DNA of 64,000 nt from Escherichia phage ph0011. The notes under the pieces are model-generated. The model did no database searches and was not told the DNA's origin. It was given only the letters and a program-made list of their open reading frames with translations. The stretch is taken from sequence record OP557969.1. The stretch is one strand, 5' to 3'. The position numbers and the translations under genes are program-made. Below, piece after piece: positions 29,160 through 63,510 of this stretch. The first letter of the stretch is position 1. The number at the start of each line of letters is the position of its first letter.

Positions 29160-29189
29160 GACATACCATAAGTTTATGATATAATATAA

Positions 29190-29220
29190 GGTGACAGCAG
29201 AATATGTTGTCACCTTTTTT
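29190..29220 (+). terminator. rho-independent terminator
   Basis: GGTGACA-11 nt loop-TGTCACC hairpin followed by TTTTTT, 30 nt after the stop at 29159. Confidence 0.6.
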
Positions 29221-29762
29221 AATCCTGAAAGGTTCCTTTAAAGGAAACGTTTAAAACCTAATCCACTCGAAAATGTAGAGGGTAGATGAGTAGTCCTTTC
29301 AGTACGAACAGCAGATGAAACCCGTTAGATGATGGCATAGTTTGAACCACTCACGGCAATGCGGCTGTATAAAGAACTCCAATAGGATAAAGAGAGTTCC
29401 TCGATAGACATATAAGGATCGCACCTTACCAATTATCTAAGGGAGATTTCATGAGAAATATGCGGTCGGAATTATACAATATAGTTGCGTCCAAATTTTG
29501 TGAAATCAAATACAAGTACTGGTCATATGGTATTTGTATTATGTGTTGGGATGTTTAAGACCAACGACCGTTGCTACAAGAACCGCGATAGAGAGAAACC
29601 GAGCAACCCGCTTTCGTCTCGTATGAGAATTCGTGATATGAACTATGTGAAGACCACCAGCGTCAAATTTTTTTGTTCTTTCCCCTGCGGGGGGATGAAA
29701 TATGCTCAAACAAACCTCGTCAATATTAATTAAAAGAATTATTATTACTTGTAGAATTTGAC
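29221..29762 (+). other. ORF-free island of about 540 bp; candidate structured non-coding RNA or regulatory region
   Basis: No convincing ORF on either strand in an otherwise densely coding genome; appears locally G+C-richer by eye with several short inverted repeats (e.g. CCCCTGCGGGG at about 29682-29692). Confidence 0.3.
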
Positions 29763-30386
29763 ATGCGTAGCATGGATAATTCTACTGGTGTTGATGTAAT
29801 CAACATCACGTATATATTCATTGAAGTTTCCACAGGAATAATGATGGCATTTATTAAAAAACAAAAAACATTTACCTATAAGACTTTGGATTTTATTGAT
29901 TGCGAAAATCAAACACAGAATGAAGATAACTTTACTGGATTTGTTGTTATTAAAGAAAAAGGATGTATTTCGTATATCAAGGAATTACAAAATGGAATTG
30001 AAGTAACGTCGGTTAAATTACTTCCTACACAAAAGCCAACAATATCCAAAGCACAATATGGTAATTATTTTGAGGAAAGATATAGTAATAATTTAATAAG
30101 TGTTAAGGCTCATATTATAAAAGGAGAACTAGAAGGAGAATATAGAAAATTCAATCCACAAGGAAAATGTGTTTGGGTTAAATACTTCAATTCAGGAAAT
30201 GATGTAACATCTGAAATAATTGAGTTTTTAGGTTTAACATGTACCCCTGAAACTCTTCATGACTACAAATTTAATGCTGAAGAAGAGTTTAATCTGATGA
30301 TGCGTTATGGAACACATTTTAAATTTTTATATGAATATAACATTGACAGTGGTGTTTTTGATAGGATAGTACAAAACTGTCTTTAA
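29763..30386 (+). CDS. hypothetical protein with MORN/YwqK-like repeat segment (start uncertain)
   Basis: ATG ORF; segment GEYRKFNPQGKCVWVKYFNSG resembles MORN-type repeats; alternative ATG further downstream. Confidence 0.45.
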   Translation: MRSMDNSTGVDVINITYIFIEVSTGIMMAFIKKQKTFTYKTLDFIDCENQTQNEDNFTGFVVIKEKGCISYIKELQNGIEVTSVKLLPTQKPTISKAQYGNYFEERYSNNLISVKAHIIKGELEGEYRKFNPQGKCVWVKYFNSGNDVTSEIIEFLGLTCTPETLHDYKFNAEEEFNLMMRYGTHFKFLYEYNIDSGVFDRIVQNCL

Positions 30387-30402
30387 CAAAAGGATTTATA
30401 AC

Positions 30403-30927
30403 ATGTCGAAGAAGGATACTTCGAAGAAAAAGCAATCAGTACATTTCAGTACTGGAAAAGATAACTGGACAACTCCAAAGGATTTCTTTGAAGAGTTGGA
30501 TGAGTTATGGGGATTCACACTTGATGCTGCTTGTGTTGATGAGACGGCATTATGTGAAAATTATTTTACACCAAATGACGATTCTCTATCACAGGATTGG
30601 GGAAAGAATATAGTTTGGTTAAACCCGCCATATAGTGATTTGAAAACATGGTTATCTAAAGCAGTAGATGCGTATAATAAAGGAGCAACAGTCGTAATTC
30701 TAGTTCCATCACGAACTGATACAATAGCCTTCCATGAATATGCTGCAAAAGTTTGTGATTGTATTTGTTTCATTAAAGGAAGATTACGATTTGGTATCCC
30801 AGAAGAACCAGAGAAGAAGACAGATTCAGCACCATTTCCTTCATGTCTTATAGTTCTTGATAATTACTTAACTACTGCTAAAATAAATTATCTTAAATCT
30901 ATTGGGTTGGTAATGAAGAAACTATGA
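30403..30927 (+). CDS. dam: DNA N6-adenine methyltransferase, phage Dam family
   Basis: ATG after AAGGA; motifs WTTPKDFFEEL and catalytic NPPY (VWLNPPYS) typical of phage N6-adenine methyltransferases. Confidence 0.88.
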   Translation: MSKKDTSKKKQSVHFSTGKDNWTTPKDFFEELDELWGFTLDAACVDETALCENYFTPNDDSLSQDWGKNIVWLNPPYSDLKTWLSKAVDAYNKGATVVILVPSRTDTIAFHEYAAKVCDCICFIKGRLRFGIPEEPEKKTDSAPFPSCLIVLDNYLTTAKINYLKSIGLVMKKL

Positions 30928-31457
30928 AAGAAACATGTATTTTATCATTTATGAGATGTAACCCTGTACATAATGGACATGGTTTAGTTTTTGAAAAGGC
31001 CAAAACATTACAAGAACAGTACAATGCTGATTTGAAAATATATCTAAGTACCAGTACTGACAATATAAAAAACCAACTCCCACCTGAACTAAAAATGTAT
31101 TATACAGAGGGATTTTATCCTTCAGTACAAGAGAACATCTACACCGAAGACAATCTATTTGATATAATGAGAGAACTGGATGGAAAATACTTAGATGTAT
31201 TTTTCATATGTGGTTCAGACCGTATTGAATCTTTTCAGAAAACTCTTGACAGTTACAATGGGAAATTATATAATTTTTGTAATATAAAAGCAATTCAAGC
31301 AGGTATTGATCGCCAATCAAGTCAATATAGTTCAACACAAATGCGTAACTTCGCAAAAAATGAAGATTTTGATAATTTTCGAGAATTTTTACCAGGTAAT
31401 GATGAGGACTTAAAAATTCAATTATTTGAAGATGTTATCAAATACATGAGGAAATAA
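30924..31457 (+). CDS. HxGH-motif nucleotidyltransferase (NMN/NaMN adenylyltransferase-like)
   Basis: ATGA overlap with dam; N-terminal CNPVHNGHG (HxGH) and C-terminal SSTQMRN (ISSTxxR-like) motifs. Confidence 0.7.
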   Translation: MKETCILSFMRCNPVHNGHGLVFEKAKTLQEQYNADLKIYLSTSTDNIKNQLPPELKMYYTEGFYPSVQENIYTEDNLFDIMRELDGKYLDVFFICGSDRIESFQKTLDSYNGKLYNFCNIKAIQAGIDRQSSQYSSTQMRNFAKNEDFDNFREFLPGNDEDLKIQLFEDVIKYMRK

Positions 31458-32671: not shown

Positions 32672-32941
32672 ATGAATTACAAAAATATACAATTCACTTA
32701 TATGGAATTATTTAAATTACACCATAAAAACAGAAGTTCTAACACAATTATTAAAAATGCGTTTACCCATAAACTATGGACAAATTACCTAGAAGAATTG
32801 CGTGAATATTTTGTTGATACTGAAATTTTCATTGGTGGTAAAAAACGAAAAATACTTAGAGTCGATAGTTTTGGTGGTCGATTAGTTCTTTCATATAAAC
32901 TTAATAACGATCTATGTTCTGTGAATTTGGTAGATTTATGA
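32672..32941 (+). CDS. small hypothetical protein, family C (N-terminal NIQFTY motif)
   Basis: ATG after AAGGA; MNYKNIQFTY; C-terminal beta-rich segment shared with next four genes. Confidence 0.6.
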   Translation: MNYKNIQFTYMELFKLHHKNRSSNTIIKNAFTHKLWTNYLEELREYFVDTEIFIGGKKRKILRVDSFGGRLVLSYKLNNDLCSVNLVDL

Positions 32942-33198
32942 ATTATAAAGATTTCCAATTTACATTCAAATATATTCGTAGTATAGCAGATAAAAATAAT
33001 AGTGTGTTTTTAGAAGACACATGTTCTGAAATGATTAATACTGTTCGTGATAGGATTAAAGAAAAATTCAGTACTGTTATTATTAACGATGAACATGCAG
33101 AATTTTCAGATATAATAATTCGACGAGATGGTAAAGTTGAGGTTCAGTACTACACTGATTTTGGATTTACCAGTGTTACGTTGGAGATATTCCCTTGA
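32938..33198 (+). CDS. small hypothetical protein, family C
   Basis: ATG at 32938 (ATGA overlap); MNYKDFQFTF. Confidence 0.55.
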   Translation: MNYKDFQFTFKYIRSIADKNNSVFLEDTCSEMINTVRDRIKEKFSTVIINDEHAEFSDIIIRRDGKVEVQYYTDFGFTSVTLEIFP

Positions 33199-33506
33199 GA
33201 TTAAATTTAAATGATATTCAATTTACATATAAAAATATATACGATTTGTATGATATGTATCTTTTTAGTGGGAAGATTGGTAACCATACTGAATCAAAAG
33301 AATCACCATTTATCCAAAATTACTTTGATTACTTAGATGCAGTTGGTGAATATATAAAAAAGAATTACAGTACTTACACTGATGGAGATGATATGTTTGA
33401 ATATTCAGGTATAAAATCTTATCAAGGAATTATCCATGTTGAGTTTCTTGAAAAAACTGATAGGGAGTTTATAGAGATCAAAGTGATGAAGTTAACGGAC
33501 CTGTAA
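33195..33506 (+). CDS. small hypothetical protein, family C, probable TTG start
   Basis: TTG after GGAG; LNDIQFTY motif. Confidence 0.5.
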   Translation: MRLNLNDIQFTYKNIYDLYDMYLFSGKIGNHTESKESPFIQNYFDYLDAVGEYIKKNYSTYTDGDDMFEYSGIKSYQGIIHVEFLEKTDREFIEIKVMKLTDL

Positions 33507-33516
33507 GGATTGACAT

Positions 33517-33807
33517 ATGATTCTTAATGATATACAATTCACATATAGAGTTTTATACATGGAGTACTCTCATACTGATCCTAAAGACTATCACTATTAT
33601 GAAACCTTTCGAACGATATGGATTGAATTTTTAGATGAATTAAAAGCGTATTACGGTAGTGTTCGTATTGTTCGTGATGGTAGAATTTACACTTGTAAAG
33701 ATGTTGTCAGTCATAGTGGTAAGCTACGATTAGAATTATATACAGAAGGACATGGTTGGATTGGTGTAAATTTACTGGATTTAGATAATGAAACACAACT
33801 TAAATGA
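33517..33807 (+). CDS. small hypothetical protein, family C
   Basis: ATG after AAGGA; MILNDIQFTY. Confidence 0.6.
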   Translation: MILNDIQFTYRVLYMEYSHTDPKDYHYYETFRTIWIEFLDELKAYYGSVRIVRDGRIYTCKDVVSHSGKLRLELYTEGHGWIGVNLLDLDNETQLK

Positions 33808-34066
33808 CATACAAGTGTTCTATAGCTTCGTATATGAATCTTATGCATCAGAAGGTTACTATGAAAGTGTGTATTATTTTTTATGGCAACAATACCGTAC
33901 TATAGTACGAGATTTATATATAGGAAAATATATAACATACTGTGATAGTAGAATGATGTGCACAGATGTTCTTAGTTATCATGGTAGGTTGGTATTCCAG
34001 TTCGAAGACAGTGAAGGTAGTATGTCTTTAAATGTAAGAGATTTAAAAGGAGTGCATTTTGAATAA
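33788..34066 (+). CDS. small hypothetical protein, family C
   Basis: ATG ORF; NLNDIQVFY motif. Confidence 0.55.
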   Translation: MKHNLNDIQVFYSFVYESYASEGYYESVYYFLWQQYRTIVRDLYIGKYITYCDSRMMCTDVLSYHGRLVFQFEDSEGSMSLNVRDLKGVHFE

Positions 34067-39531: not shown

Positions 39532-39795
39532 ATGAATATCCAAGATAGATTACAATTGTTGTGCACACTTGAACAAGCTGCTTATGAACTTGTTAATAAA
39601 ATCTCTGAAGAACTTCCCAAAGGAACTAGAGTTCGTGTTCGTGAAATGGATTATGTAACGGGTGAAATTGAAGAAAAAGTTTTAACAGTGGTTAAAGTAA
39701 CATACTATGAGTCAGAGCTATCAATTCAATGTAAGTCAGATAATGGTTACATTTCCTACTATGGCACTGATATAGAGATGGAGGTAATCAAATGA
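39532..39795 (+). CDS. small hypothetical protein
   Basis: In-frame ATG at 39532 after GGTGGA. Confidence 0.5.
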   Translation: MNIQDRLQLLCTLEQAAYELVNKISEELPKGTRVRVREMDYVTGEIEEKVLTVVKVTYYESELSIQCKSDNGYISYYGTDIEMEVIK

Positions 39796-40934
39796 CCCTT
39801 TTACAAATATATGAAGATTTGATGCACTTATGTAATACCCGTGAGGCTTTCTTTTATGTAGATCATAAAAGTCCTGCTGGTGGCACATATCGTGTATTCA
39901 GTTATCGACTAGCATCATATACTGATTTCATGCAACCGAATGCATTGGAAACCCGTGGTTCTATGTGGGAAATCGATGACGATGGCAACATGATACGTTG
40001 TGCATCACGTTGTATGAAAAAGTTCTTTAATGCTTACGAAAATCCTGCTACGATGTTCCCTGCTGATACCAAATGTGATGACATTGCAGTAGTGATGCCT
40101 AAGTTGGATGGTTCAATTATCAGTTCTTACCGTGATAATGATGGTATTATTCGTTGTAAATCACATACCTCATTGTATTCTGACCATGCAATTAACAGTA
40201 CTCGACTAATTAACGAGAACCAGAATTTGTATCAGTACATTGATGAAGCTGAACGTTTGGGTTACACGGTTAACATGGAGTACACAAGCCCAGAGTACCG
40301 AATCGTATTGCCATATCAGGTAGAACAACTATTTGTTCTAAACGTCCGTCATCGTGTAAGTGGTGAATTGTTGTGTGGTAAAGCATTACGCGAAAAGTTT
40401 CCTTGTCTTTCACAGTACAGCACCAATATGACAGGTAAAGATATTCATCACACGTTTCCGGTAAGAAATACATTTCGTGAAAGTGTTGAAGAAGTTCATA
40501 AAATGCTTGATATTGAGGGTTTTGTTTGTATTCTAAAAGATGGGACAATGTGTAAAATAAAGACGGATTGGTATAGTTCATTACATCTAACAAAAGACAG
40601 TATCATTATTGATTCACATTTGTTCGAAGCTGTGTTAAATGGTTCAAGTGACGACTTGAAACAATTATTCAGTACTGACGAATATGCTATGCAAAAGATA
40701 TTGAGAATGGAACAATTGGTATTTTCGTGCTATAATTCATTACAAGATGAGGTAGAAAACTTCGTCAATACACACAAGCACTTGGGACGAAAGGAATTCG
40801 CAATGAAGGTTCAGGAGTGTTTGACTAATGAACTAAATCGTCAGGGCTTGGCCTTTGCAATGTATAACAATAAGTATGTTGATTATAAAGAAACTCTTAT
40901 CAAATACATGAAAGTAGTACTAAAGGACTTTTAG
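39792..40934 (+). CDS. rnlA: RNA ligase 1 (T4 Rnl1/gp63-like)
   Basis: ATGA overlap after GAGG; 380 aa; N-terminal segment FFYVDHKSPAGGTYRVFSYRLASYTDFMQPNALETRGSMWEID closely parallels T4 Rnl1 as I recall it, including the adenylylation-site lysine context. Confidence 0.9.
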   Translation: MTLLQIYEDLMHLCNTREAFFYVDHKSPAGGTYRVFSYRLASYTDFMQPNALETRGSMWEIDDDGNMIRCASRCMKKFFNAYENPATMFPADTKCDDIAVVMPKLDGSIISSYRDNDGIIRCKSHTSLYSDHAINSTRLINENQNLYQYIDEAERLGYTVNMEYTSPEYRIVLPYQVEQLFVLNVRHRVSGELLCGKALREKFPCLSQYSTNMTGKDIHHTFPVRNTFRESVEEVHKMLDIEGFVCILKDGTMCKIKTDWYSSLHLTKDSIIIDSHLFEAVLNGSSDDLKQLFSTDEYAMQKILRMEQLVFSCYNSLQDEVENFVNTHKHLGRKEFAMKVQECLTNELNRQGLAFAMYNNKYVDYKETLIKYMKVVLKDF

Positions 40935-42032: not shown

Positions 42033-42965
42033 ATGCCGACTATCACACTAACAGTTGGTTTACCTGGATGTGGTAAAACAACATGGGCAGTACAAGAGAT
42101 TAAAAAAGCCAAATCCAAGACTATCAATATCAACCGTGATGATATTCGTGAATCGATGGCTGGGTCACATGATGCTTACAAATTCAATGATGCTAATGAG
42201 AAGTACGTAACTAATTTACAGTTCAGTGCAGCAAAATTAGCAGCAGAGAATGGTTGGAATATTATTGTATCCGACACAAACCTTAAACCACATTTCCGTG
42301 AACAATGGAAAATGTGGGCTAAAGATAATGGTTATGATTATAAAGAAAAGAACTTCTATGATGATTTTGTACCAAAGGAAGACCGTGGTGCAGATGTTCA
42401 TGAATTCTTTAAGATTAAAGAGTTTGTAAAACTTTGTAAGAAATATAACCTCCAGCGTGAGCGTTCAGTACAAGATAATATCATTGACACAATGGCAGAT
42501 ACGTACTATTATAGTAAGGCATTGCATATTGGTTACTATGGTAATTCTCGTGAAGAAGCGATTATCGTTGATATCGATGGAACTCTTGCTCATAAATGGA
42601 ACCGCAATCCATTTGATGAAAGTACAGTTCTCCAAGATACACCAGACGAAGAAGTTATTTTGTCTGTTATCGCCGAAGCAGTTTTTCATAAACGCAAGAT
42701 TATTGTCATGAGTGGTCGTACTGAAGGGTGTCGTGCTGACACAGAACAGTGGTTGAAGAATTGGGGTGTTCCCTACGATGCATTGTTTATGCGAGGCATT
42801 GATGATAAACGTCCCGATGATGTTGTTAAATTCGACCTGTACATGAAAAATGTGGTTGATCATTACGATGTTAAAAAAGTATATGATGACAGAGCACAAG
42901 TCGTATTCATGTGGCGTAAACTACTTGGATTGAAAGTGATGCAAGTTGCGGAAGGAAATTTTTAG
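42033..42965 (+). CDS. pseT: polynucleotide 5'-kinase/3'-phosphatase (T4 Pnk-like)
   Basis: ATG after AAGGAG; P-loop GLPGCGKTT in kinase domain; phosphatase DxDGT motif (VDIDGTL); collinear with T4 PseT as I recall it. Confidence 0.92.
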   Translation: MPTITLTVGLPGCGKTTWAVQEIKKAKSKTININRDDIRESMAGSHDAYKFNDANEKYVTNLQFSAAKLAAENGWNIIVSDTNLKPHFREQWKMWAKDNGYDYKEKNFYDDFVPKEDRGADVHEFFKIKEFVKLCKKYNLQRERSVQDNIIDTMADTYYYSKALHIGYYGNSREEAIIVDIDGTLAHKWNRNPFDESTVLQDTPDEEVILSVIAEAVFHKRKIIVMSGRTEGCRADTEQWLKNWGVPYDALFMRGIDDKRPDDVVKFDLYMKNVVDHYDVKKVYDDRAQVVFMWRKLLGLKVMQVAEGNF

Positions 42966-58329: not shown

Positions 58330-58935
58330 ATGAAACTATTCTTGAAAGAGATTGTACAAACCGTTGTTTTAATCGCTGCATTAAATTTTCCAGCAGCGGC
58401 AGAAGTTTCAAAAAAAGCATCTGTTCTTCTATTAAATGAACAGGTTGTATCAATGGATGGTGAACTAAATGATAATACGGTACAAGAAGTAGAGCAGTTG
58501 TGGAAAGAAAAAAGATTTAAAATTTTAACAATTACATCACCTGGGGGTGATTTTGATGCTGGTATTAAAATGGCAAATTTTGTTAGAGACAATGGTATAA
58601 ATTTAATTGTTTCTAAATATTGCAATTCGGCATGTACTGTGGTATTCTTTAGTGTATCCCCAGAAAAGCGATATATGACAAATCAATCAGTACTGGGATT
58701 GCATAATATTTCAATCAAAAGTAACGTTAAAGATATGGATCATACTTTCGTATCTGTTAGACAACTATCATCATTTACTGAAGAAATGGCAACAAAAGTA
58801 GGATTTTTATTTACACTATATTCAGCTAATGGTATTCCACCTAGCATTCTATATAAAGTTAGTCGTTCACGTGGTGAAGATGTTGTTATCTTAACAAAAA
58901 CAGACCTAATAAATTACGGTTCAGTCAATCCATGA
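58330..58935 (+). CDS. putative secreted ClpP/SppA-fold serine peptidase-like protein
   Basis: ATG after GAGG; N-terminal signal-peptide-like hydrophobic segment; ITSPGGDFDAG and CNSACTVVFF resemble the ClpP/S49 SPGG and Ser regions. Confidence 0.45.
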   Translation: MKLFLKEIVQTVVLIAALNFPAAAEVSKKASVLLLNEQVVSMDGELNDNTVQEVEQLWKEKRFKILTITSPGGDFDAGIKMANFVRDNGINLIVSKYCNSACTVVFFSVSPEKRYMTNQSVLGLHNISIKSNVKDMDHTFVSVRQLSSFTEEMATKVGFLFTLYSANGIPPSILYKVSRSRGEDVVILTKTDLINYGSVNP

Positions 58936-59003: not shown

Positions 59004-59264
59004 ATGACAAACATCCAGAATTTGACATCTATTATTTTTTATGCTACAGTGGTGATATATGCTATTGTACTTATTTTAACAGTTTTTATATACAAAGATT
59101 ACAAAAAAGGCTTTATTAATAGCACAACAATCAAGTTCAATTCTAAATTTAAAGAAATTATATTTTATGTTTTGACAACATCATATTTGTTGTGTATATT
59201 GTTACTAGGGCCATTGATTTATATTTTATATACAACATTATTTGCAATTGGAGCTATTTTATGA
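59004..59264 (+). CDS. small predicted membrane protein
   Basis: ATG ORF; two hydrophobic helices; stop overlaps next start (ATGA). Confidence 0.5.
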   Translation: MTNIQNLTSIIFYATVVIYAIVLILTVFIYKDYKKGFINSTTIKFNSKFKEIIFYVLTTSYLLCILLLGPLIYILYTTLFAIGAIL

Positions 59265-59857
59265 CATGTATTATTGCACACACTAACGGTGTAACTTCAT
59301 TTATTGCAGGGGACAAGATGGGGAGTGATGGTTTTACGAAATCAATCCAAACAGAGCCGAAAGTGTTTGAGAAAGAATTCGTAAAGATTAGTGGTGATGA
59401 CGGCTTGACTCGTACAAAAGATGTTATGACTTTTGGATTCACTACATCATTTCGTATGGGGCAACTGCTAACTTACAATTTAAATTTACCAGACCAAAAT
59501 TCAAATGAGACGTTTCTACAGTACTTAGTACTGAAAGTTATTCCTATTATTCGCCAAATGTTTAAAGACGAATGGGGTGCACGTGATACATCACAAGATG
59601 TTGGTGGTGGTCAATTTATTATTTTACACAATCATAAGATTTATGAAATTCAGGAAGATTTTTCAGTTCTCCAGTCAAAATCAAGTATTGCATCAGTTGG
59701 TAGTGGTACATATCATGCAATTGCAGCGATGCAAGCATACATTGAACTCGAAAAAGAAACTAACGTACAACTTCATGAACGTATCAAATCTATTTTCAAA
59801 ATTGTCAGTGATAATGTGTCGAGTGTAAGTGAAGAGTTTGATGTATTAAAATATTAA
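59261..59857 (+). CDS. proteasome-type Ntn-hydrolase (HslV-like peptidase)
   Basis: ATG at 59261; N-terminal MTCIIAHTNGVTSFIAGD (Thr directly after Met) and IASVGSGTYHAIAAMQAYIE parallel HslV TTIV...IAGD and IAIGSGGPYA segments. Confidence 0.65.
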   Translation: MTCIIAHTNGVTSFIAGDKMGSDGFTKSIQTEPKVFEKEFVKISGDDGLTRTKDVMTFGFTTSFRMGQLLTYNLNLPDQNSNETFLQYLVLKVIPIIRQMFKDEWGARDTSQDVGGGQFIILHNHKIYEIQEDFSVLQSKSSIASVGSGTYHAIAAMQAYIELEKETNVQLHERIKSIFKIVSDNVSSVSEEFDVLKY

Positions 59858-60076: not shown

Positions 60077-60829
60077 ATGATATCAGAAAAATTCATAAGT
60101 AATGAGGGAAACAAGAGATTACTTATCATCTCAGGAGCAGGTCTTTCCGTTGAAAGTGGTATGGACCCATTTCGTTTCGATGATGGCCTATGGGATACAT
60201 TTAAAATTAATGATGTATGTAATATTGCAAATTTAGATACAAAATATCATATTGTTCATTCGTTTTATAACACGCTGCGTGTTAAACTGGGTCAATGTGA
60301 ACCAAATGCAATGCATTATTTTATAAAATCATTAGAGGAACAATATGGTGATTGTTTCCTTCATATGACTTCAAATATGGATGATCTTTACACCCGTATT
60401 GGCGGTAAAGAACTTAAACTTCATGGTAATTTATGTGAAGTGATAGAAAATTATAGTATTAATGGTGATGATTACAACATTGTTAACTGTGGTTATGAGC
60501 CATATATCCCAAAACATGATATTTTTGCTAAACCAAATGTAGTGATGATTGGTGAGTATCATCGTTATGTAGATGGTGTACGCCTACCAATATATGAAGA
60601 ACGAAATAATGTCTTGAAATCCCTTGATGAAAATGATACAGTTATTGTTATTGGTAGCAGCGATACTGTTCTTGTATGGTCCCGATTGGTAGCATCATTG
60701 CCATGTTATAGTGTCAATGTTAATATTAGAAAGAATGATAATGATTTTTTGTTTAATGAAAAAATTATCAAGCCAGCAACCAAAGCAATACCACAACTAG
60801 AGACTATAATTAAGGAACGTATGAAATGA
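60077..60829 (+). CDS. Sir2-like (sirtuin family) protein
   Basis: ATG after AAGGA; LLIISGAGLSVESGMDPFR (GAGxS.ESG..FR), LHGNL (catalytic His), VVMIGE and TVIVIGSS motifs; canonical Zn CxxC pairs not evident. Confidence 0.78.
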   Translation: MISEKFISNEGNKRLLIISGAGLSVESGMDPFRFDDGLWDTFKINDVCNIANLDTKYHIVHSFYNTLRVKLGQCEPNAMHYFIKSLEEQYGDCFLHMTSNMDDLYTRIGGKELKLHGNLCEVIENYSINGDDYNIVNCGYEPYIPKHDIFAKPNVVMIGEYHRYVDGVRLPIYEERNNVLKSLDENDTVIVIGSSDTVLVWSRLVASLPCYSVNVNIRKNDNDFLFNEKIIKPATKAIPQLETIIKERMK

Positions 60830-61377
60830 GTGTTAAAGAAGTTCCCTTTGGTGAATATGGTTCACGTGCAAATTTTGTATTCTGCTATTTCTTTGCAAGA
60901 GGATGTAATCCCTACGAAAACTATGAGTTGAATGATATACCAGAAGTAAATTTAGTATTACTTCAACTACGATGGGATGGCCTTCTGGGTGGATGTGGTG
61001 GTACAGTTGAAAGTACTGATATCTCATTAGAAGATGCGTTGCGTCGTGAAATACAAGAAGAAATGAACTACTATATTTTTGTTTCTCACCTAAAACCACT
61101 TAAAACGTTTGAAATTTACCCAGGTGCAAACAGTCATAGTTTCAGTTATGAAGTAACATATGATGAGTTAAAATACATTCGTGATGGGTATACAACTGCC
61201 AAACATGCAAGTGCCGAAGTTGCTGGTGTAAATTTATGTCACATTTCTCGTTATTCTAAGGGACAAAATCGAGAAGCGGGATATAATAATCTTATGACAC
61301 AGAACTTCATCGGTACAGCAAAACACGAATTAGCGTATCTGGTACAAAAAGAGAACTTACTAATTAGCTATCTATAG
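60826..61377 (+). CDS. Nudix-like hydrolase (tentative)
   Basis: ATGA overlap with the Sir2-like gene; Nudix-box-like GCGGTVE...RREIQEEMN with non-canonical spacing. Confidence 0.45.
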   Translation: MSVKEVPFGEYGSRANFVFCYFFARGCNPYENYELNDIPEVNLVLLQLRWDGLLGGCGGTVESTDISLEDALRREIQEEMNYYIFVSHLKPLKTFEIYPGANSHSFSYEVTYDELKYIRDGYTTAKHASAEVAGVNLCHISRYSKGQNREAGYNNLMTQNFIGTAKHELAYLVQKENLLISYL

Positions 61378-61387
61378 GAGTTTAAAA

Positions 61388-61708
61388 ATGTCTTACTCTA
61401 TGTTTTTGGATGACATTCGTGATGCAAAACAATATTACCCTAATCAAGATATGGTAGTATGTCGTGATTTTAACAGTGCGTGTGAATATGTTGTTAAAAA
61501 TGGAATTCCAGCATTTGTATCATTTGACCATGACTTGGGTGATATGAGTGGAGACGAAAAAACTGGATATTCTTTTGCTAAATTTCTTATTGATTATATG
61601 TTTGATAATAATATTAAAGAACCGTTTGAGTACTTTGTGCACAGTAGTAACCCAGTTGGTAAAGTTAACATTGAAACATACTTAAACAATGGATTTAATG
61701 CATTATGA
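61388..61708 (+). CDS. hypothetical protein
   Basis: ATG after AGGAG; 106 aa. Confidence 0.55.
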   Translation: MSYSMFLDDIRDAKQYYPNQDMVVCRDFNSACEYVVKNGIPAFVSFDHDLGDMSGDEKTGYSFAKFLIDYMFDNNIKEPFEYFVHSSNPVGKVNIETYLNNGFNAL

Positions 61709-62070: not shown

Positions 62071-63510
62071 ATGAAAAAATATACAATTGACACAAACGTA
62101 CTACTATCTGATCCAAATGCATCTGTTGCTTTTGATGGTGCTGCAATCATTCTACCATTTACAGTACTGGAAGAATTGGATTCGATTAAGAGTCGCAATG
62201 TTGATGTTTCACGTGATGCTCGTGTTGCGATTCGTAACATTGAAGCAATTATTGCAGAGGCATCACATAATGAGATTAGTTGTACTGGTGTTAATATTGC
62301 TGATGTTCATACCAATATGAGTCCTGAAAGCAAATTGTTTGTTATTACAAACGAAGAAGCTGAAGCACTAATTCGTACTAAGGCAATTGAAGATAAAGTT
62401 CAAACACTTCTCAAAAGTTCTGTACCAGATGATAAAATTATCTTAGTCGCTTTAGCAACTGATTCAGTACTGGTTACCCGTGATATCAATATGCGTATCA
62501 AGGCTCTTAGTTATGGAGTTGAAGTACAGGATTATCGTCATGATGTGGTTATCGGTGATAGCGATCTAATGCACGTAGGTCAACATCATCTCGATATCGA
62601 TTTCTGGGCAGAATTCAGTGGGATTGAAAATGCTGAAATTAAATCTGAAAAAACAGGTCGCCGCCTGTATCATTATATCCCAACACATCTAATCAAAGAT
62701 CTTCTTCCACAAAATCTTTGTATTGGTGACTATCTATATGATAATGCTGATGTGCTCTTTGTTTACGAAGGTCAGTCTGCAATCGAAGAAGATGATGGTA
62801 GTCTAACACCAGAAGATATTTTGGTCTTCCAAGATATTGGTCAATCTGTTGCATTACGTGCTAATGTATGGGATATTAAAGCTAAGAATGTCAAACAAGC
62901 ACTAGCTATTAATAGTATTCTCGATCCCGATGTACATCTAACAGTTCTACTAGGTTCTGCTGGGACAGGAAAAACACTAATTACGATTGCTACTGCACTA
63001 GAGTTAGTTCTGGAAAAACGTAAATACGACCGTATTATCTTCTCTAAAACACAAGATTCACAGTTTGAAGATATCGGATTCTTGCCTGGTTCAGAGGCCG
63101 AGAAAGTGATTCCATTTTGTGGTCCAGCGATTGACGCACTAGAGTACCTACATAAAGATGATGCAAATCCACAAGGTAGCATTGAGGAAATCATGAAACG
63201 TAATGTTATCCAGTTCAAAGCATTGAACTTTATTCGTGGTCGTTCTTTTGCCAATACAATTCTAATTGTGGATGAAGCACAGAACTTAACACCAGCCCAG
63301 CTAAAAACTGTCTTGACAAGAGCCGGAGAAAACTGTAAAGTAATCATACTTGGTAACCTAGCACAGATCGATAACAAGTTTATCAGTCCAGTAAACAGCG
63401 GTCTAACTTATGTAACTGAGAAATTTAAAAATTGGTCTGGTTGTCGTATCATTGAATTGGAAGGTGTTGTTCGTTCACCACTTGCTGAATTTGCTGAAGA
63501 AAATATGTAA
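62071..63510 (+). CDS. phoH: PhoH-like ATPase with N-terminal PIN domain (YlaK type)
   Basis: ATG after AAGGA; PIN-like N-terminus (YTIDTNVLLSDPNA...LEELD); Walker A LLGSAGTGKT, Walker B ILIVDEAQNL. Confidence 0.88.
   Translation: MKKYTIDTNVLLSDPNASVAFDGAAIILPFTVLEELDSIKSRNVDVSRDARVAIRNIEAIIAEASHNEISCTGVNIADVHTNMSPESKLFVITNEEAEALIRTKAIEDKVQTLLKSSVPDDKIILVALATDSVLVTRDINMRIKALSYGVEVQDYRHDVVIGDSDLMHVGQHHLDIDFWAEFSGIENAEIKSEKTGRRLYHYIPTHLIKDLLPQNLCIGDYLYDNADVLFVYEGQSAIEEDDGSLTPEDILVFQDIGQSVALRANVWDIKAKNVKQALAINSILDPDVHLTVLLGSAGTGKTLITIATALELVLEKRKYDRIIFSKTQDSQFEDIGFLPGSEAEKVIPFCGPAIDALEYLHKDDANPQGSIEEIMKRNVIQFKALNFIRGRSFANTILIVDEAQNLTPAQLKTVLTRAGENCKVIILGNLAQIDNKFISPVNSGLTYVTEKFKNWSGCRIIELEGVVRSPLAEFAEENM

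Follow-up and report, generated by a model that had tools for sequence, protein, structure and literature searches.

An orphan Dam gene and a predicted nucleotidyltransferase gene of the T4-GC190 family lie side by side, outside any recognisable NAD-salvage pathway, in Escherichia phage ph0011

Jumbo phages are known to carry cassettes for the synthesis of nicotinamide adenine dinucleotide (NAD), made up of nicotinamide phosphoribosyltransferase (Nampt) and of nicotinamide mononucleotide adenylyltransferase (NMNAT) in NMNAT-Nudix and NMNAT-kinase forms, and the counter-defence role of the NARP1, NARP2 and NARP3 pathways is established (PMC7824862; PMC11662467; bioRxiv 10.1101/2024.02.11.579819; PMC13464706). 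Members of another nucleotidyltransferase (NTase) family, from cyanophages, have been labelled NMNAT, found in virion proteomes and discussed speculatively, without assays, in terms of NAD (PMC9602691, PMC10665884, PMC12801897). A member of this family is encoded next to a DNA adenine methyltransferase (Dam) gene at positions 30403–31457 of the stretch analyzed here, 64,000 nucleotides of Escherichia phage ph0011 (OP557969.1), which we call the window. A first reading of the locus from its letters (the sequence-only reading) had described two probably co-translated genes joined by an ATGA overlap, of which the second was NMNAT-like or phosphopantetheine adenylyltransferase (PPAT)-like, and had connected them with Sir2-like and Nudix-like genes at 60077–61377 and with NAD salvage. 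The locus is not new, as 121Q, PBECO4, GAP32 and ph0011 already have annotations for both of its genes, and neither is the NMNAT idea, which has been published as speculation for the cyanophage homologs (PMC9602691, PMC10665884). Related records name the pair DNA (N6-adenine) methyltransferase and "cytidyltransferase"; in ph0011 the second gene is a "putative cytitidyltransferase", and one GenBank record calls its ortholog phosphopantetheine adenylyltransferase. The family name "T4-GC190 cyanophage cytidylyltransferase" derives from a Pfam domain and not from an assay.

With moderate confidence, we read the pair as co-oriented, independent accessory genes, namely an orphan Dam and an NTase of the T4-GC190 family that would transfer AMP to a phosphorylated acceptor. 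Judged by their sequences, both open reading frames (ORFs) are real genes. The first (30403–30927, + strand) codes for a phage-type DNA N6-adenine methyltransferase of 174 aa, in whose translation the catalytic motif IV, NPPY, is read at residues 74–77 (30622–30633). The second (30924–31457, + strand) codes for a stand-alone HIGH-motif (HxGH…SSTxxR) NTase of 177 aa, with the nucleotide-binding motif H-N-G-H at residues 16–19 (30969–30980) and S-S-T-Q-M-R, a phosphate-binding motif of the ISSTxxR type, at residues 136–141 (31329–31346). Its ATG (30924–30926) overlaps the TGA of Dam (30925–30927), which gives the ATGA at 30924–30927. On all of these points, as on the existence of the Sir2 and Nudix genes, the sequence-only reading was correct.

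The Dam assignment is straightforward. The protein matches Pfam PF05869 (E 7.2e-33; 114.1 bits against a curated cut-off of 28.1) and phrog_111 (E 1.2e-57), while it falls narrowly below the stricter threshold of the NCBIfam equivalog TIGR01712 (95.9 against 97.05 bits); a single-sequence phmmer search of the PDB returned no useful match. Using tblastn, we found homologs in 2153 phage records, some of them from T1-like, Stx-converting, lambdoid and lactococcal 936-group phages. Like the orphan Dams of PF05869 in those phages, the window protein is a small, single-domain, full-length profile match with NPPY, and there is no notable difference between them, so that by these comparisons it is an ordinary orphan phage Dam. 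It would use S-adenosylmethionine to methylate the N6 position of adenine in phage DNA, a putative means of blunting restriction. Besides, the genome is under strong restriction pressure. GCGC does not occur in the window (16.5 expected) or in the 352-kb relative OR844650.1 (160 expected). The whole of the latter genome also lacks 23 of the 64 six-base palindromes, CCATGG and TCCGGA included; CTGCAG, GGATCC and GGTACC are found 0 times there, against 53, 32 and 32 expected, respectively. GATC is about halved (observed/expected 0.47–0.51), with 603 sites left in OR844650.1, and GTAC (1.4–1.5) and AGTACT are over-represented. The window shows the same pattern of avoidance, which fits an anti-restriction Dam covering the sites that were not purged.

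As for the relation between the two genes, we compared the neighborhood of the NTase in eleven genomic contexts. The DNA around the pair is 83–91% identical to that of about 30 jumbo coliphages and Salmonella phages of the 121Q/PBECO4 group (genus Asteriusvirus). Dam lies directly upstream of the NTase in 121Q, Klebsiella KP13-7, Cronobacter GAP32, Yersinia fHe-Yen9-04 and a metagenomic contig (L006), and in five Rak2-like lineages the junction is a 4-nt overlap or a gap of 1–8 nt; across these phages the identity to the window proteins is 43–66% for Dam and 33–56% for the NTase. The arrangement was seen only in enterobacterial Rak2-like phages, which share their general gene order, and is absent from Pseudomonas phage 30-3 (PA5oct group) and from the T4-like cyanophage P-SSM2. 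The gene upstream of Dam in the same + strand block (29763–30386; 207 aa; phrog_16210, 3e-86; unknown function) accompanies the pair in GAP32, 121Q and the Klebsiella and Yersinia phages. As synteny extends to the flanking genes, the adjacency of Dam and NTase amounts to inherited gene order and not to independent evidence of coupling, and we rejected it as proof of a functional link, given that it is also missing outside the Rak2-like clade. Moreover, in phages ECO103 4-12-1 and EC22.5-2 the gene for a 261-aa phrog_681 endonuclease, homing-endonuclease-like with Cys-rich repeats, is placed exactly between Dam and NTase, with ATGA overlaps on both sides (L018 14539–15324, that is OR844650.1 259539–260324, − strand; the equivalent junction in the window is 30924–30927).

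The ATGA itself is the commonest junction type in the genome and is uninformative about function. Among the 126 same-strand junctions of a crude gene set covering the window, 20 are of this kind and 62 have an overlap of any sort, and by hand count 14 of 91 junctions in the 121Q annotation are 4-nt overlaps. In view of these counts and of the endonuclease insertion, we rejected the overlap as the mark of a special coupled pair. Nevertheless, termination-reinitiation at the ATGA is plausible, because the NTase is preceded by a weak Shine-Dalgarno sequence only (GAAGA), whereas Dam has an AAGGA at 30390–30394, 8 nt 5′ of its ATG. The two genes are probably on one transcript, with products that would work independently.

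The NTase is by its sequence a member of the phage-specific T4-GC190 family, phrog_3041 ("cytidyltransferase"), which it matches at E 9.4e-53 in PHROGs and with which it shares GRxNPxxxGH, KNPL, GSDR, YNGxxYNF and SxTxxR. It bears the (H/T)xGH and SxTxxR signatures of the superfamily, as H16-N-G-H19 and S136-S-T-Q-M-R141, and the GSDR, YNGxxYNF and AGxR motifs are specific to the family. Among 43–61 divergent members, R11, P14, G18, H19, N50, L52, K57, G97, D99, R100, Y111, N112, R130, S136 and R141 are invariant or nearly so. In 43 diverse members H19 of the HNGH does not vary, G18 hardly does, and residue 16 is either H or T; S136 and R141 are constant throughout the family. Since its key residues, with R11, H19, N50, R100, N112, S136 and R141 as the catalytic ones, are so well conserved, the NTase looks catalytically intact. 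An exhaustive profile search yielded 3603 cluster representatives at E<=1e-3, and tblastn found matches in 546 phage records, chiefly of T4-like cyanophages; 446 are from cyanophages (369 Synechococcus phages, 59 named Cyanophage and 18 Prochlorococcus phages) and the others from Rak2-like jumbo phages of Escherichia, Klebsiella, Salmonella, Cronobacter, Erwinia, Yersinia and Pseudomonas. The window protein is 100% identical to the "putative cytitidyltransferase" of ph0011, 93% to 121Q gp418, 39% to GAP32_069 and 30–36% to cyanophage proteins; P-SSM2 PSSM2_194 and the "cytitidyltransferase" of S-PM2 are further examples of phrog_3041, and these relatives have the HxGH, KNPL, GSDR, YNG and SxTxxR motifs in common with it. 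It represents the minimal, stand-alone form (177 aa), whereas many marine members are extended at the N or C terminus by up to about 1000 aa and adjoin a DUF6267 gene rather than Dam.

To which class of nucleotidyltransferase the family belongs is a more delicate matter. The Pfam domain behind the current annotation, PF01467 (CTP_transf_like), is matched by the window protein with 16.4 bits, under the cut-off of 21, and by 44 of 61 long family members at E<=0.001. Scores against the NCBIfam NadD/NMNAT models are also below their cut-offs (NF000840, 20.4 against 150 bits; TIGR00482, 19.7 against 112.45); there is no PPAT match in Pfam or NCBIfam, and a single-sequence phmmer search of the PDB gave nothing useful. 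An AlphaFold model of the NTase, built on 16 homologs (pLDDT 86.8), has a Rossmann-like alpha/beta nucleotide-binding fold. When it was compared with the PDB using Foldseek, PPATs ranked at the top, and PPAT, NadD and NMNAT all stood at TM scores of about 0.6 and were not separable. Adenylyltransferases ranked above cytidylyltransferases. The glycerol-3-phosphate/phosphocholine cytidylyltransferases, from which the GenBank name comes, are not the closest structural class, and the NTase lacks their RTEGISTT-type C-terminal motif; the sequence-only reading had given glycerol-3-phosphate cytidylyltransferase as an example of an assignment that would count against it. The family profile ranked PPAT (E 3e-5), NadD (9e-4) and NMNAT (4e-3) among PDB sequences, the best match being the H. 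pylori PPAT, with 27 bits over a full-length alignment. In profile-profile comparisons using hhalign, the NadM-Nudix protein of GAP32 led (86% probability, E 4.7e-6, 142 columns), followed by E. coli NadR (73%, N-terminal motif only), CoaD (29%) and NadD (27%). In BFVD, family members superpose on our model at TM 0.8–0.94 and viral proteins named NMNAT at 0.45–0.59. Judging from the model, the NTase belongs to a distinct family on the adenylyltransferase side and is not a cytidylyltransferase by fold. It is assignable neither to NMNAT nor to PPAT, and the profiles put the family between the known classes; at about 20 bits against cut-offs of 112–150, the NMNAT assignment is unsupported.

Such an enzyme would bind ATP through HxGH and SSTxxR and move AMP onto the phosphate group of an acceptor molecule, with release of pyrophosphate; adenylyl transfer is to be expected of it because its structural neighbors NMNAT, nicotinic acid mononucleotide (NaMN) adenylyltransferase and PPAT do so. 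If a single acceptor had to be singled out, nicotinamide mononucleotide (NMN) or NaMN would be the likeliest, which we put forward only tentatively. The T4-GC190 family may instead be a new class of phage adenylyltransferase distinct from NMNAT, possible though short of probable, acting for example on a defense-related nucleotide or a macromolecular phosphate, with a giant and possibly virion-delivered protein beside DUF6267 in marine T4-like phages and a free enzyme in Rak2-like jumbo phages. Several observations weigh against our reading of the NTase as an adenylyltransferase apart from NAD metabolism. The best single hhalign match of the family is, as seen above, an NMNAT of the NadM type; the N-terminal GRxNPxHxGH and KNPLxxxxK resemble NadM and NadR motifs; a few fused members carry a P-loop kinase, recalling NadR; and phrog_395 of PHROGs joins cyanophage members with NadM-Nudix proteins, a sign of relatedness to NadM that we consider weak, as this is a mixed cluster that already holds cyanophage members of the family. 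The phage also encodes a consumer of NAD, Sir2, and PA5oct, which has a homolog of the NTase, induces the host operon pncA-pncB1-nadE, which lacks nadD (PMC7318152); this induction is compatible with a role as NaMN adenylyltransferase and does not show one. Biochemical data for any member of the family were not found in the literature searched, and neither the papers on phages JP4, fEgEco12 and Sharanji nor the searched text of the one on phAPEC6 discuss the NTase.

These same observations favor the strongest rival, that the NTase is a true NMN/NaMN adenylyltransferase which, with Sir2 and the Nudix protein, manages or restores NAD in the infected cell, for instance against NAD-depleting defenses. 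The weak NadD matches in NCBIfam, the NMNAT label of the cyanophage homologs (PMC9602691) and the precedent of phage NAD reconstitution by NARP1/2 (bioRxiv 10.1101/2024.02.11.579819) and NARP3 (PMC13464706) add to them. We nevertheless regard this as a minority possibility. Compared with NadM-type NMNATs (M. jannaschii MJ0541, the NadM-Nudix proteins of Francisella and Synechocystis, GAP32_112 and NatV of the KVP40 NARP2), the NTase is without a Nudix domain and without a Nampt partner, scores far below the NMNAT family thresholds, and its GSDR, YNGxxYNF and AGxR have no NMNAT counterpart; the viral proteins named NMNAT are, as noted, clearly more distant from the model than the family is. In the hhalign alignment, the HDYVYNNSKW segment of GAP32_112, the putative nicotinamide-binding loop of NadM, faces a gap. 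In addition, a lone NMNAT cannot rebuild NAD from ADP-ribose and nicotinamide, the products of NAD-depleting defenses.

The genomic context does not help this rival either. The Sir2 (60077–60829; PF02146, E 1e-19) and Nudt16-like Nudix (60826–61377; E 2e-18) genes are in the window, 29 kb from the Dam-NTase pair. Queried with Nampt and NadM-Nudix of GAP32, tblastn gave no match at E<=0.01 in the window and none at E<=1 in ECO103 4-12-1 (OR844650.1; complete, 351,992 bp), an Asteriusvirus genome in which PnuC and NadR-type genes were not searched for, whereas the same Nampt query matches 2017 other phage records, down to 24% identity. In none of the eleven contexts does a gene for Nampt, PnuC, NadE, phosphoribosyl pyrophosphate synthetase or Nudix adjoin the NTase, and organism counts point to at least about 315 Synechococcus phage records in which the NTase occurs and Nampt does not. 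We also considered the phage DNA ligase as a source of NMN for an NMNAT and rejected it, since the ligase is ATP-dependent and therefore makes no NMN. GAP32 is particularly informative, as it has a canonical NadM-Nudix (GAP32_112) and Nampt (GAP32_114) ahead of its Sir2-Nudix-PhoH block, and its NTase (GAP32_069) 22 kb away beside Dam; because both proteins are separate genes at separate loci there, the NTase family coexists with a bona fide NMNAT without clustering with it. Between the Ig-domain tail gene and Sir2, where GAP32 has its NadM-Nudix and Nampt genes, the window has genes for a ClpP-like (58330–58935) and an HslV-like (59192–59857) peptidase. Hence the NAD-salvage context is not supported, and the wider interpretation of the sequence-only reading is supported only in part: no recognisable or complete pathway of NAD salvage, reconstitution or counter-defense includes the NTase in this genome. 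As to Sir2 and Nudix themselves, they are part of a conserved block (60077–61708 and 62071–63510) that continues with a protein with a cREC (cyclic-phosphate processing receiver) domain (61388–61708), a small membrane protein and a PIN-PhoH fusion; in GAP32 (locus L012, 3570–12376) Nudix and cREC form one protein of 301 aa.

A second rival holds that the family acts on a macromolecule or another unusual acceptor, being in marine phages the virion-delivered N-terminal domain of a very large protein, of which the jumbo-phage copy is a free-standing version. It finds some support in the organization of the marine genes. A DUF6267 gene recurs directly upstream of the NTase in uncultured phages, marine and other, and the NTase itself is fused to, or overlaps, a large protein. 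Among the 150 best family representatives, 88 are at least 400 aa long, and the C-terminal regions of 86 of these 88 form one homology cluster; the gene that the NTase gene overlaps in T4-like marine phages, which codes for 604–844 aa, is homologous to this C-terminal module. Of 61 long members, 16 have DUF5824 and 6 have a Zeta-toxin/AAA_33 kinase, and the cyanophage homologs have been detected repeatedly in virion proteomes (PMC9602691, PMC10665884). Even so, we find this rival improbable, considering that known HIGH-fold enzymes of such size use small phosphorylated molecules, that neither the C-terminal module nor DUF6267 nor DUF7207 was found in the window or in the complete Asteriusvirus genome, and that, according to those same authors, the detection in virions could be carry-over (PMC9602691, PMC10665884). 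The searched text of the phAPEC6 paper, which did not extend to its virion list, does not mention the NTase. In five of the loci compared (L002, L004, L024, L025 and L027), the marine module consists of DUF6267 (about 410–420 aa), the NTase and a protein of 604–864 aa, the last sometimes with Zeta-toxin/AAA_33 kinase and DUF5824 domains; a DUF7207 gene is found downstream in L002, L004 and L024. NTase and large protein are fused in many metagenomic proteins, and in one variant (P0241) the NTase is fused to an encapsulated-ferritin-like domain, with ferritin genes nearby in L002 and L004.

It is less probable still that Dam and NTase form one functional unit, in which a two-step DNA modification, or a methylase in need of the NTase product, would explain translational coupling. 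The pair stays tightly adjacent in five Rak2-like lineages in spite of their divergence, and the NTase has the weak Shine-Dalgarno sequence mentioned above. However, these lineages share their long-range gene order in any case, with RNA ligase, polynucleotide kinase-phosphatase and the flanking genes of phrog_16210 and phrog_14956 as part of it; Dam is matched in 2153 records and the NTase in 546, and the two were seen to adjoin only in the Rak2-like clade, whereas they are apart in the cyanophage and PA5oct-like genomes compared; and the generic junction and the intervening endonuclease gene speak against such a unit. Finally, we give equally little credence to a PPAT-like or other cofactor enzyme (coenzyme A [CoA] or flavin adenine dinucleotide branch) that would boost host cofactor synthesis, for despite the best profile match to H. 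pylori PPAT, the top Foldseek matches and the name given in one GenBank record, hhalign to E. coli CoaD stays at 29%, identity to CoaD/PPAT is 12–18% with different central motifs, the characteristic PPAT motifs are not conserved in the family, CoA-pathway neighbors occur in none of the contexts, and phages are not known to carry CoA synthesis genes of such a kind.

We therefore keep to the reading of two independent accessory genes. For the Dam-NTase locus itself, the significance is small. The family is another matter, with thousands of members, 446 cyanophage records and repeated reports from virion proteomes, and it merits enzymological work: identification of its substrate would give either a fourth, minimal route of phage NAD maintenance or a new phage nucleotidyltransferase activity.

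The region around the pair showed several additional features. Within the NTase ORF, at 31246–31274 (+), there is a perfect sigma-70 consensus, TTGACA-N17-TATAAT, of which about 0.16 sites are expected per window strand and which is kept in 121Q, ECO103 and Klebsiella KP13-7. Its hexamers fall on conserved codons of LDxYNGxLYNF, those for L-D and Y-N, so the site may result from the coding sequence or may serve the downstream genes as an internal promoter. Further along (32672–34066, +), at least five paralogous genes of about 90–100 aa each stand in tandem; their similar N-terminal motif, ..N(D/Y)(I/F)QFTY.., points to local amplification of a gene family of unknown function. A T4-type RNA ligase 1 (39792–40934, +) and a polynucleotide kinase-phosphatase (42033–42965, +) make up a tRNA-repair set 9–11 kb downstream of the pair; the order Dam, NTase, RNA ligase 1 is kept in GAP32, and with the kinase-phosphatase also in the metagenomic contig L006.

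Upstream of the gene block, an intergenic element of about 515 nt free of ORFs (29247–29761, +) is preceded by a strong terminator at 29188–29216 and is GC-enriched with respect to its surroundings. It is 95% conserved to ECO103 4-12-1, as compared with about 84–88% for the flanking coding DNA, has three further copies in the ECO103 genome and occupies the syntenic position in 121Q, Yersinia fHe-Yen9-04, GAP32, KP13-7 and a metagenomic contig. A search of Rfam 15 gave no match at E<=1. In a consensus fold of eight copies, 96.8% of the cells pair, against 83% in shuffled alignments and 39–46% with slid partners, and compensatory changes are seen at 39 of 76 pairs, against 18 ± 2.8 in shuffles. 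From these comparisons, the element is a candidate for a large structured RNA, as yet undescribed, in Rak2-like jumbo phages, and we judge it worthier of follow-up than the Dam-NTase pair.

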